NCBI RefSeq assembly: GCF_988242995.1
Contig: NZ_OZ547043.1
DNA length: 64,000 nucleotides
Strand: one strand, 5' to 3'
Shown here: positions 9,801 to 13,727 of the stretch, piece by piece
Layout of the letters: the number at the start of each line of letters is the position of its first letter
How positions within the stretch are numbered: position 1 is the stretch's first letter
Notes under the pieces: generated by a model
What the model was told of the DNA's origin: nothing
What the model saw: the letters and a program-made list of their open reading frames with translations, nothing else
Database searches by the model: none
Made by a program: the position numbers and the translations under genes

Positions 9801-10993
9801 ATGCAGGTAGCCCAGTTCAACTCTCACTACCAGTATGATCCCAAGTTCGAGCGCGGAATGTATCTGTATGAGCATCGTCGCTGTTTCAATAACATCATCG
9901 ACTACTGTAACTCACTTTGCTATCACGGTAAGTTGCAGCCTAAAAGAGGGATGGAAAAAGGACGATTTTCCCCGCAATGGGATATTTACATATTGATGGT
10001 AGAGGCATGAAGCCAAATGGAGGGAGCCGTCATAACCCTCTTGAAGCTGAAACAATAGCAGCATGGCTGGTGGCACATAAGGATGATATAGAGCGCCATT
10101 ACGGGGAACCACTGTACAAAGTTGTTGGTGTTGTGACGCCATTTTCGGCGCAGGTTAATGCTATCAAAATGTCATTGCGTAAGCTGGAAATTAATGGCAA
10201 AGACGAGCAGGGTTTACTGACAGTGGGGACTGTGCACTCCTTGCAGGGGGCGGAAAGGGCGATTGTTCTCTTTTCTCCTGTCTACTCAAAACATGAAGAT
10301 GGCAGGTTTCTTGATAGCAACAGCACTATCCTCAATGTTGCTGTCTCACGCGCTAAAGATAGTTTTCTGGTATTTGGCGATATGGACCTTATCGAGATGC
10401 AGCCCGCATTTTCGCCGCGAGGGTTATTGGCAAAATATCTCTTTTCTTCAGATAATAATGCGTTGCAATTTGAGTTTCAGAAACGACAGGATTTAATTTC
10501 CGCACATACACAAATTTCAACGCTGCATGGTGTGGAGCAGCATGATGAATTTTTGAACAAGACTCTTGCCGGAGCTCAAAAGAAAATAACGATTATTTCC
10601 CCTTGGTTATCCTGGCAAAAAGTGGAGCAAACGGGATTTCTGGCATCAATGGCTTTGGCCCGTTCCCGGGGCATTGATATTACCGTGGTGACGGATAAAA
10701 ACTGCAATATAGCGCATGTCGATGATGATAAGCGTCAGGAGAAACAACATCTGCTGAATGATGCTGTTGAAAAGCTCAATAAGATGGGTATCGCTACGAA
10801 ATTGGTTAATCGTGTTCACAGCAAAATTGTGATTGAGGATGAAGAACTGCTGTGTGTCGGATCTTTTAACTGGTTCAGTGCTACACGGGAAGATAAGTAT
10901 CAACGATACGATACGTCTTTGGTGTACCGTGGTGAAGGCGTAAAAAATGAAATAAAGGCAATATATGGTAGTCTGGATCAACGTCAGCTTTAA
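9801..10993 (+). pseudogene. yjhR: remnant of SF1 helicase (C-terminal lobe) fused to PLD-family nuclease domain; frameshifted and 5'-truncated
   Basis: Two consecutive frames (9801-10010 and 9977-10993). Helicase motifs V/VI ([28 protein letters not shown]) and an HxKxxxxD motif (HSKIVIED at about 10816-10839). No room upstream for a Walker-A lobe. Confidence 0.65.
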
Positions 10994-11575
10994 ATGTGAT
11001 GAGCCGTTCATGATACAGGAGTAGTAAAGGGCATATTTTACCAATGTTAAGGCGACTTTCCGTTTTATTGCGAGTCGCCTTTCCTGATTATAAATCTTAT
11101 TGTTTACCTAATCATTTTCCTTTGCATAATGCGCCTGGGATTAATGGCGGGTGCTTTTAGGAATGAAAGAAAATGCAAGCAATAATATAATAATGGCCTA
11201 ATTTCTTTGAACATCATTAAGCATATCATCATCGTCTATTTGCCAGAATCCGTCGACTTATAATCGCCAGAACGGCATATCAGGACGGTGCTGCGAACGC
11301 TGTGGCCCAAAACGTTCCAGTAAACTGTGTAGATGTTCGTAGATTTCCGAGCCATAATCGAAAAGGCGCGGATGTCTATTAAGGCATCCGGCTAATCTGT
11401 AAGCAATAACAACGGTTTATGCGGTACGCGTTTTTCACCCTTGTGCCAGATTATTATATTGGCAATTGCCTGCTGTTCGAGCCCGCAAGTGAAGAGATAT
11501 TACCTTGATCTCATTTGTTTTTTGTTGTCTACTCTGAGAACGAACAAGGACATCCCCCATGAATAAACTCCCCGC

Positions 11576-12556
11576 TCACCTTTCGCGCCAAAACTGCAAA
11601 ATTGCTTCTACAAATCTGTCAGAAATAATCCCCCGACGGGCTGCAGTGCTGAAATGACTGCTTCGCAGTGCCGTCGTCCAGTTCTCCGGTGACCGGTACG
11701 CTGAACCGTAATATCCCGTGCTTAAATCGTCCGGGTCTTCATCAGGCGCGTTCGTCAGTCCTCTTTCACCTTGTTGCTGGAAGTCGACGAAAATAATATT
11801 GGCTAAAACATTATTTTGATAATTGCCATAAATAGCTTCATACGAATGCGGGAAATTTTCTTTCCAGTACCAGGTGGTATCGCCGCAAAACCACGGCGCG
11901 TCAGTAATATTATTAAGCTGAGAATGGTATTGTTTTAGATCCCTACGAAAGGCTTCAACCATATGATTAAAGTGTTGAGGGTGTGACGCGTAGTCACTGG
12001 TCATTAAGTCAAATTCGCCTTGCATCCAGCATGCGCCGAGGAATTTGTTCTGCGGATTTTTTGCCAGTGCGGCTCGCGTTCTGCTGACTAAATCCTGGTA
12101 CAGCGGAGTATCCGTTCCCCAACGACAAGCATCATGGCTGGCTCCGTGCCGTTCTGAATATGTCCCTTCGCTGCCCGCGGTAAAAGCCGATCCGCCACGG
12201 CAACACGGAACGATAAGAATCCCTGCATTATCAGGAATGAAGGGCAGTAATTTCCGTGCAATATGCAGTGCCTGGCCAACGGTGCCGTACTGTGTTTGAT
12301 GATTCGTTGCCAGAGGATGGTGATAACCCTGCATATCCTGAACATCGTGTGGGCAGTGAGTCAGTGGAATAATGTCGTTAAAGTGACATGGCGGGCCTCC
12401 GGGATGCGTATGCGCAAATCTCGCTAATTGTTTAATTCTGGGATGAGGCGCATCTTCCCTGTCCGGTAATGGCAGTCCTTCGCCATACGCCATGGCATTA
12501 GACTGACCAGCAACGGTAAGAACATAGTAATAATCGGGCGATATTATTGCGTTCAT
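11576..12556 (-). CDS. nanS: 9-O-acetyl-N-acetylneuraminate esterase
   Basis: 335-aa ORF; start placed at MNAIISPDYYY... for about 326 aa; recognised as NanS/YjhS. Confidence 0.8.
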   Translation of the reverse strand: MNAIISPDYYYVLTVAGQSNAMAYGEGLPLPDREDAPHPRIKQLARFAHTHPGGPPCHFNDIIPLTHCPHDVQDMQGYHHPLATNHQTQYGTVGQALHIARKLLPFIPDNAGILIVPCCRGGSAFTAGSEGTYSERHGASHDACRWGTDTPLYQDLVSRTRAALAKNPQNKFLGACWMQGEFDLMTSDYASHPQHFNHMVEAFRRDLKQYHSQLNNITDAPWFCGDTTWYWKENFPHSYEAIYGNYQNNVLANIIFVDFQQQGERGLTNAPDEDPDDLSTGYYGSAYRSPENWTTALRSSHFSTAARRGIISDRFVEAILQFWRER

Positions 12557-12620
12557 ATAAATTTCGCGTAATTGAAATGACAAATTGATAGCAGGGCCCC
12601 TTTACCGGGGCCCTGAAGCG

Positions 12621-13727
12621 TTAGTTTTGTACTGTGACTTTATTATCCTTCACAGTGATCAAAACTGAATCCGTCACCGCTTTGCCGCCTGCAGTTTCAC
12701 CGCCAATAATCAATAGACTATTATTCCAGGGCAATGATACTCCGTAGGCCCGACCTTGCGATAATTCACCCGATTTATCCCATTTCCCGTTATGCCAAAG
12801 ATGAATATCAGTGCTATATGATTTTTTCAGGCCTTCATGCGCATAGTTCTTACCGTTCTGGTAATTTTCTCGTGAACCTTTGAATCCGGCCCCTCCGGCA
12901 AATATAAGAGAATCATTGCTTATCCCCGCAAAACCGCCAGCTACGCCATCTGGTGATGAGACGGGAGCAAGCTTATTCCATTTTAAATTATTACCGGTGA
13001 AATCAAGTTCAAATACGGCATCCGTTCGCAATCCTGGTTTGGCTTCGCCATTAATAAGCCAGGTTTTATCACCTTTATTCACAACCGCCGCACCAGCCGT
13101 TCCGTACCAGGGCGATTCGCCAGCGTAACTCCATTGCTGTGTTGAGGGATCAAAAGACAACAGAAACTTATTGAAGAAATAATCTTCTGCTTTTTTGTCA
13201 AAATAGTGAGCATTGATTTTATCTATAGCGGTTGAATCTTTTCCAGCCTCGTTGAGATCTTCAAAATAGCCATTGAAGATATTCTGGTTAACACCACCAG
13301 TAACATAAGCCTTGCCGTTGTGTACAAAAGTCACATGGCCCGCCATGCCCATCGGCGCGTGCGACATCAATTTAACCCAACTATTGGTTTTGGGGTTGTA
13401 TTTGTGTACGTCATTAAATACCTGAGTCAAGCCCTCGCTGTTTTTGCCAATGCCGCCAAACACATACAGATTGCCATCAATAAATGCAGAGGTTGCTTGA
13501 TCTCTTGGTCCGCCAGGGAATGCAGCTAACGCTGTCCATTTTTTATCTTTGGCCTGTGTATCCAGCTTGTACCATGCCGTACCTGCGCTACCTAAACCAA
13601 TGTAGACAGTGTCGTTATCAATTGCTCCGGTACCACTTTTAAATGGCACAGGAGTTTCCGGTAATACAGACGCGTTTGCGGCAAATGAAGCCATCATGAT
13701 AGCAAGCGCCGTTATTGTTTTATTCAT
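12621..13727 (-). CDS. nanM: N-acetylneuraminate epimerase (Kelch-repeat, periplasmic)
   Basis: Start at MNKTITALAIMMASFAANA (signal peptide), ATG checked at 13725-13727; 368 aa; repeated Kelch-like motifs. Confidence 0.9.
   Translation of the reverse strand: MNKTITALAIMMASFAANASVLPETPVPFKSGTGAIDNDTVYIGLGSAGTAWYKLDTQAKDKKWTALAAFPGGPRDQATSAFIDGNLYVFGGIGKNSEGLTQVFNDVHKYNPKTNSWVKLMSHAPMGMAGHVTFVHNGKAYVTGGVNQNIFNGYFEDLNEAGKDSTAIDKINAHYFDKKAEDYFFNKFLLSFDPSTQQWSYAGESPWYGTAGAAVVNKGDKTWLINGEAKPGLRTDAVFELDFTGNNLKWNKLAPVSSPDGVAGGFAGISNDSLIFAGGAGFKGSRENYQNGKNYAHEGLKKSYSTDIHLWHNGKWDKSGELSQGRAYGVSLPWNNSLLIIGGETAGGKAVTDSVLITVKDNKVTVQN

Follow-up and report, generated by a model that had tools for sequence, protein, structure and literature searches.

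The yjhR pseudogene of Escherichia coli K-12 is very probably the 3′ third of mkoC, a single-gene type II Mokosh anti-phage system

The yjhR locus of Escherichia coli K-12 very probably holds the 3′ third of mkoC, the one gene that makes up the type II Mokosh system of anti-phage defence. In the window, the 64,000-nucleotide stretch of contig NZ_OZ547043.1 (assembly GCF_988242995.1) that was analysed, the remnant, yjhR′, lies on the + strand at 9767–10993 and corresponds to codons 764–1171 of a 1171-aa type II Mokosh protein. The 338-aa open reading frame (ORF) that makes up most of it reaches only positions 812–1135 of the 1136-position MkoC profile of PADLOC (E=4e-139), and therefore descends from this family as an incomplete member. 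End-to-end similarity to MkoC is thus absent from the K-12 copy, while intact orthologues have full coverage: the AF16 protein aligns over residues 1–1169 with profile positions 1–1135 of 1136 (1471 bits), and a variant from B1S11 likewise covers 1–1135 (1689 bits). Much weaker PADLOC matches were to MkoA in the helicase part (E=2e-18), MkoB in the phospholipase D (PLD) part (E=1e-14) and DrmC (E=4e-5). The first-pass annotation, made from the letters of the sequence, had taken the region for the corpse of an older defence gene, a view that the PADLOC matches support and make precise.

K-12 records match positions 9000–11300 of the window at 100% identity. The order of genes annotated by PGAP in K-12 DH10B is yjhP, yjhQ, topAI, a small hypothetical ORF and helicase YjhR, followed on the 3′ side of YjhR by a pseudogene fragment of a phosphorothioated DNA-binding restriction endonuclease, ythB, nanS, nanM and nanC. 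PGAP places the yjhR pseudogene at 9753–10993 and flags it as “frameshifted; incomplete; missing N-terminus”. Two ORFs on the + strand, in different frames, share the remnant. The upstream one, of 69 aa (9801–10010), encodes the start of the RecA2 lobe including helicase motif IV, which is of the Upf1-like type (YEHRRC, 9867–9884), and the 338-aa ORF (9977–10993) encodes the remaining RecA2 helicase lobe and the PLD domain. Motif V (TVHSLQGAE, 10229–10255), motif VI (NVAVSRAK, 10334–10357) and a single HKD motif (HSKIVIED-x6-GSFN, 10817–10870) all lie in the 338-aa ORF, which matches the Pfam families AAA_12, over profile positions 81–194 of 195 only (E=7e-19), and PLDc_2 (E=3e-11), as well as the PLDc active-site motif (E=7e-7). 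The HxK(x)4D motif of a C-terminal PLD-family nuclease is therefore present in K-12, as the PLDc_2 and PLDc matches indicate. No RecA1 or Walker A lobe is encoded upstream of the remnant, homology to the intact gene starting only at 9767–9769. A GSGKS sequence at 9768–9782 was considered as a Walker A motif and rejected: it corresponds to conserved residues 764–768 of the intact proteins, a Pseudomonas homologue reads GRS at this site, and the true P-loop of the intact protein is at residue 294. What the first-pass annotation had described is borne out by these results, namely a partial helicase lobe joined to an HKD motif (AAA_12 and PLDc_2 matches and motif positions), a split over two frames (a 1-bp deletion relative to three full-length genes), the want of a Walker A lobe upstream, where 9691–9766 is instead an insertion sequence (IS) stub, and topAI-yjhQ as a neighbour, ~750 bp to the left of the remnant. 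Its start coordinate of 9801 needs correction, for the remnant begins at ~9767, ~34 bp earlier.

The extent of the loss is defined by intact orthologues. Searches with the repaired yjhR translation found many longer E. coli proteins, including 96%-identical “DNA helicase, partial” entries that reach far toward the N-terminus, and a distant-mode search found yjhR-like DNA in 2253 of the 5426 complete E. coli genomes. AF16 carries an unflagged 3516-bp “helicase YjhR” gene, encoding 1171 aa, directly upstream of nanS-nanM-nanC-fimB. This gene and yjhR of K-12 occupy the same locus, the intact AF16 gene lying between leuX and nanS-nanM-nanC-fim, and 2017-02-2CC also has an intact 1171-aa yjhR between these markers. 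A comparison with intact strains, the check that had been proposed along with the first-pass annotation, thus recovered, at this one chromosomal locus, orthologues in which the N-terminal helicase lobe is complete. The window is collinear with 2017-02-2CC from 9767 to at least 16000, that is, from codon 764 through fim. The alignment with the remnant begins at 12289 in the 2017-02-2CC locus (L005) and at 9001 in the AF16 locus (L004), and across the retained 1227 bp K-12 and 2017-02-2CC show 21 differences (98.3% DNA identity). Because K-12 aligns with the intact genes only from 9767, it retains codons 764–1171 and has lost codons 1–763. In the intact protein, Walker A (GPPGTGKT) is found at 294, motif II (VDEAGQ) at 696, motif III (GDTEQ) at 721 and motifs IV–VI at residues 797–960, and Pfam assigns AAA_11/AAA_30 to residues 270–344, AAA_12 to 795–969 and PLDc_2 to 1028–1141. 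The K-12 break at codon 764 lies downstream of both the ATP-binding Walker A motif and motif II, which hence are missing. The intact protein passed no NCBIfam model, all matches being below cut-off, and a sequence search of solved structures gave no close relative, only marginal matches to DNA2, an RNA helicase-like protein and IGHMBP2/SMUBP-2.

Intact alleles are rare. The 5′ 2290 bp of the AF16 gene are kept in 13 of the 5426 complete genomes, six of them AF16-like and seven in a second allele group; intactness was confirmed for AF16 and for 2017-02-2CC, which represents the second group, so that 13 of 5426 is an upper limit for intact alleles. A second intact MkoC variant, also of 1171 aa and with 68% amino acid identity, adjoins leuX in B1S11, and in 556 genomes the best yjhR match falls, as this variant does, within the 60–80% identity band. 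The B1S11 variant lies in a defence island (L003 5156–19221) that also contains genes for an HNH endonuclease and for a restriction endonuclease, as well as a cluster of four genes: DUF499, DUF3780, DUF1156 and PLD-like “anti-phage”.

Other lineages have broken the gene in other ways. Independently of the K-12 event, yjhR of E. coli has suffered an IS3-family truncation at the equivalent of 9892, an IS66/ISEc23 insertion in AVS0655, with the same split match (query 1–745) in an ST131 genome, and further independent insertions of IS1 and ISEc52. Homologues of 380–450 aa in Klebsiella and Kosakonia were considered as a stand-alone family and rejected, as they are IS3-interrupted, IS3-truncated or cut by contig ends: a 397-aa Klebsiella ORF represents the 3′ half of an mkoC gene that IS3 has interrupted and whose 5′ half, of 705–780 aa, remains, mkoC of Kosakonia is truncated beside an IS3 element, and a 453-aa Klebsiella entry starts 115 bp from a contig end. 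An IS3-family insertion close to residue 770 interrupts mkoC of Klebsiella quasipneumoniae. The first-pass annotation had allowed that homologues might reveal the 338-aa product to be a complete, stand-alone protein; this idea fails, since the short homologues are broken genes and intact 1171-aa orthologues exist.

The sequence that adjoins the break in K-12 is a 76-bp terminal stub (9691–9766) of an IS256-family, ISEc39-like element, 88% identical to the ISEc39 end in LF82. Its outer inverted repeat, at 9691, adjoins a fragment of a GNAT acetyltransferase gene, and its broken inner end adjoins yjhR codon 764, which falls within the central part of the helicase core, after motif III and before motif IV. 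A general repeat search detected no inverted repeat for ISEc39; pairwise alignment revealed an imperfect terminal inverted repeat at the other ISEc39 end, matching the stub. The simplest reading of the junction is a deletion that would have extended from within the neighbouring IS256-family element to codon 763, and that would have taken the promoter together with codons 1–763, the start codon and the whole RecA1 lobe among them. Copies ~92% identical to the stub lie beside djlA in numerous E. coli genomes (eight or more among the matches listed), and solo ends of ISEc39-like elements are therefore scattered through E. coli.

The same deletion probably had a second consequence. The two intact strains each have, ~310 bp upstream of the yjhR start (L005 9679–9699 in 2017-02-2CC, L004 6400–6420 in AF16), a duplicate of the 3′ end of the tRNA-Leu gene leuX, GCGAGTCCGGCCTTCGCACCA, which is the distal att repeat of whatever element sits integrated at leuX. 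Since a search of the first 16 kb of the window gave no leuX att repeat, it would have been removed by the deletion that truncated yjhR. The leuX island of K-12, KpLE2, seems in this way to be without its distal boundary, and its excision would be prevented. The elements found at leuX in the intact strains are diverse. In 2017-02-2CC a P4-like satellite (L005 1–9326) with integrase, psu, sid, delta and primase genes takes up the interval from leuX to yjhR, and in it a 961-aa reverse-transcriptase gene and a partner gene lie beside the integrase gene; in AF16 the element is a methyltransferase island riddled with IS elements. The K-12 architecture over 9000–11300 is common to 1475 genomes, which fits one old event followed by vertical inheritance.

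Loss of the reading frame came later. At 9961–9962 on the + strand, K-12 has lost one G (GGG to GG), so that DNA alignment with three full-length genes gives GGAAAAA-GGACG in K-12 versus GGAAAAAGGGACG in the intact orthologues, which read GAA AAA GGG ACG. Importantly, ACN001 has the same left junction as K-12 and an uninterrupted frame: its retained part is translated without an internal stop, and PGAP flags it only as “incomplete”. Because ACN001 shares the break and does not have the frameshift, truncation preceded the frameshift. Both states are represented among protein clusters, one of 397 aa with 695 member sequences and one of 338 aa with 1335. The later 1-bp deletion split the remainder into the 69-aa and 338-aa ORFs, and in K-12 helicase and nuclease are consequently not part of one uninterrupted polypeptide.

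Deletions have also reshaped the neighbourhood of the remnant. On its left, yjhQ (8201–8746, − strand) and topAI (8758–9015, − strand) are neighbours that lie outside the Mokosh remnant and are separated from it by the IS stub and the GNAT acetyltransferase fragment (9393–9692, − strand), whose 5′ end adjoins the IS terminus. A 99-aa coding sequence is annotated for this fragment at the collinear position in AVS0655, and K-12 has only a 43-aa ORF. According to the annotation, yjhQ, the antitoxin gene of the pair, is frameshifted in AVS0655 (L002 8200–8747) and in ACN001 (L010 1–493), with the toxin gene topAI intact, an unexpected state of a toxin-antitoxin pair provided that TopAI is active. 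On the right, the two neighbouring restriction genes of the mkoC cassette are reduced to stubs. The first, a type IV restriction gene for a phosphorothioated-DNA-binding endonuclease with a sulfur-binding domain and an HNH domain (SBD-HNH), survives as a 5′ stub (11230–11476, − strand; PGAP pseudogene coordinates 11261–11466) that aligns with L004 11142–11389 of AF16; a 667-bp deletion took the HNH part, L004 10475–11141 being missing from K-12. The intact 290-aa SBD-HNH protein matches the NCBIfam model PT-DNA_restrict with 437 bits. K-12 is not known to phosphorothioate its DNA, and loss of SBD-HNH would thus have carried no obvious cost. From the second gene, which combines ScoMcrA_N and HNH domains, K-12 lacks ~626 bp relative to AF16. 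The small ORF ythB (11559–11657, + strand) joins the first five codons of this HNH gene to a small ORF that lies 3′ of it in AF16: the MNKLP of YthB is the start of the HNH gene that is intact in AF16, and the rest matches a 29-aa ORF there (L004 11546–12285). The annotated small protein YthB thus appears, from this comparison of sequences, to be a by-product of the deletion.

The substitutions in the remnant indicate that selection no longer maintains it. When the K-12 differences were polarised with the two intact alleles, the terminal K-12 branch carried six nonsynonymous changes (G808D, Y852H, T898M, S913L, S950T and A1136T) and one unambiguous synonymous change. The dN/dS ratio between the intact alleles is 0.11–0.15, such that ~30% of changes are expected to be nonsynonymous, and six of seven departs from the ratio expected at dN/dS ~0.12 (binomial p=0.004). 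Between K-12 and its nearest intact allele dN/dS is 0.45, and the nonsynonymous and synonymous counts for K-12 differ from those of the intact-intact comparison (Fisher p=0.012). The counts are small, with seven polarised changes on the K-12 branch, and all tests point in the same direction. Based on the 6:1 ratio on this branch versus the dN/dS of 0.11–0.15 among intact alleles, the remnant is under relaxed constraint and drifting. Truncated relative to orthologues at the same locus, disrupted in frame and released from constraint, it has the properties by which a pseudogene is recognised, and it is predicted to be inactive. A simple consensus scan for promoter-like sites found none on the + strand between 9300 and 10426, a promoter and terminator scan upstream of the remnant gave nothing useful, and an Rfam scan of 8000–13000 returned no matches.

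HKD enzymes, Nuc and Zucchini for example, work as homodimers, and one may ask whether the truncated polypeptide of RecA2 and PLD domains (338 aa in K-12, 397 aa where the frameshift is absent) might still be expressed, whether as an HKD nuclease in its own right or to modulate intact Mokosh proteins or serve as their decoy. The HKD motif and PLD domain are intact, as are helicase motifs IV–VI at the level of sequence; open ORFs are very common, in the clusters of 1335 and 695 members; and the architecture has been kept in those 1475 genomes. However, vertical inheritance of one old deletion accounts for the wide occurrence, and the six nonsynonymous changes to one synonymous, together with the frameshift, are not what an expressed product would lead one to expect. 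In addition, other lineages show independent IS disruptions and further truncations, the upstream region has no promoter-like site, inspection of the sequence found no Shine-Dalgarno match before either ATG, and the short homologues elsewhere are IS-broken genes that form no conserved short family. We therefore consider an expressed stub quite improbable. The chance is likewise slim that the stub is translated and acts as a small HKD nuclease, or in dominant-negative fashion on an incoming intact Mokosh, or else that MkoC, the sulfur-binding-domain HNH protein and the ScoMcrA_N-HNH protein form a coupled cassette. In AF16 and Klebsiella, mkoC is followed by a convergent 289–290-aa sulfur-binding-domain plus HNH gene and then by a ~215-aa ScoMcrA_N plus HNH gene, a triad conserved in both; the three-gene arrangement of AF16 is also that of the two Klebsiella quasipneumoniae loci (L011, L012). 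If a coupled cassette were true, K-12 would hold the three-part relic of a composite system.

Programmed ribosomal frameshifting could in principle join both frames into a functional protein of ~400 aa, and the shift does adjoin a run of five A residues (GGAAAAAGG); an old label of yjhR, “frameshift suppressor”, hints at something of this kind. Such recoding is nevertheless hardly credible, because ACN001, a close allele with the same truncation, has the extra G and a single frame, which makes the shift a recent mutation and not a conserved recoding site, and because the joined product would still be without an ATPase lobe. Almost no weight can be given to the idea that the gene was originally short and that the 1171-aa proteins arose secondarily, by fusion with an unrelated helicase gene upstream: no point was found in its favour, and it is refuted by the full-length variants and by collinearity, the full-length architecture being conserved in the leuX-adjoining variant (68% identity, 1171 aa), longer homologues in Pseudomonas, Xylella and others extending N-terminally, the MkoC profile matching end to end, and the K-12 break falling between motifs III and IV of the helicase core, next to an IS fragment.

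With yjhR′ read as the 3′ third of a decayed mkoC, part of the picture is already known, namely its status as a pseudogene, from the RefSeq annotation, and its relationship to Mokosh, from a 2022 preprint in which YjhR was called a fused MkoA-MkoB Mokosh (Cury et al. 2022, bioRxiv 10.1101/2022.12.12.520048). The present analysis adds to this: it locates the exact break point with the IS stub beside it, establishes that truncation came ahead of the frameshift, shows how rare intact alleles are, and cautions that what is called the “YjhR protein” in K-12 amounts to no more than the last 29% of MkoC; none of these points should surprise a specialist. The caution matters for the use of the gene, as K-12 YjhR has served in print as the example of a fused Mokosh to be compared with human MOV10L1 and PLD6, although it is without the ATPase lobe. 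Studies and defence-system detectors would be better served by an intact allele, e.g. WP_338387444.1 or WP_024009495.1. More broadly, the locus illustrates the decay of defence cassettes at the leuX hotspot, where one deletion from an IS stub would have killed mkoC and erased the att repeat, and two further small deletions cut the adjacent restriction genes to stubs, one of them apparently yielding ythB.

Type II Mokosh has been described as a PLD nuclease preceded by an RNA-helicase-like COG1112 domain (Millman et al. 2022, bioRxiv 10.1101/2022.05.11.491447), and Mokosh defence is abolished by mutations of the helicase ATP-binding site or of the PLD active site (bioRxiv 10.1101/2022.05.11.491447). 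By these published criteria the K-12 copy, as judged from its coding content, cannot be a working Mokosh, because it fails the requirement for an ATP-binding site. In intact MkoC, the N-terminal region and the Upf1-like superfamily 1 (SF1) helicase would feed the C-terminal HKD nuclease of the PLD family. The Mokosh II protein of E. coli is a monomer of ~132 kDa, and its activity is narrow, directed at the “ssDNA phage SEC 17” (bioRxiv 10.1101/2025.07.10.664194). By our own estimate, this mass fits a protein of ~1171 aa.

Among known systems, the resemblance to DrmC of DISARM and other single-HKD defence nucleases is confined to a weak match of the PLD domain to DrmC (E=4e-5), whereas yjhR has no DISARM gene context and the DrmC score is far below that for MkoC. 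The likeness to Upf1, MOV10L1, DNA2 and IGHMBP2 on the helicase side and to Zucchini/PLD6 on the nuclease side is distant and at the level of domains only, with no evidence for common substrates, even though published structural comparisons pair YjhR with MOV10L1 and PLD6 (bioRxiv 10.1101/2022.12.12.520048). Type I Mokosh is closer, in that the C-terminal lobe of the helicase matches MkoA and the PLD domain matches MkoB, but it consists of two genes and carries a serine-threonine kinase domain, whereas the ancestor of yjhR was one fused gene, and no kinase-domain family is among the Pfam matches listed for the intact protein. Type II Mokosh is the system from which the K-12 copy descends, and the copy differs from it in having only profile positions ~812–1135 and a short out-of-frame stretch, in lacking Walker A and RecA1, and in being frameshifted, while its intact orthologue has the very architecture of that system, with a Upf1-like SF1 helicase and, C-terminal to it, a PLD nuclease on a single polypeptide chain.
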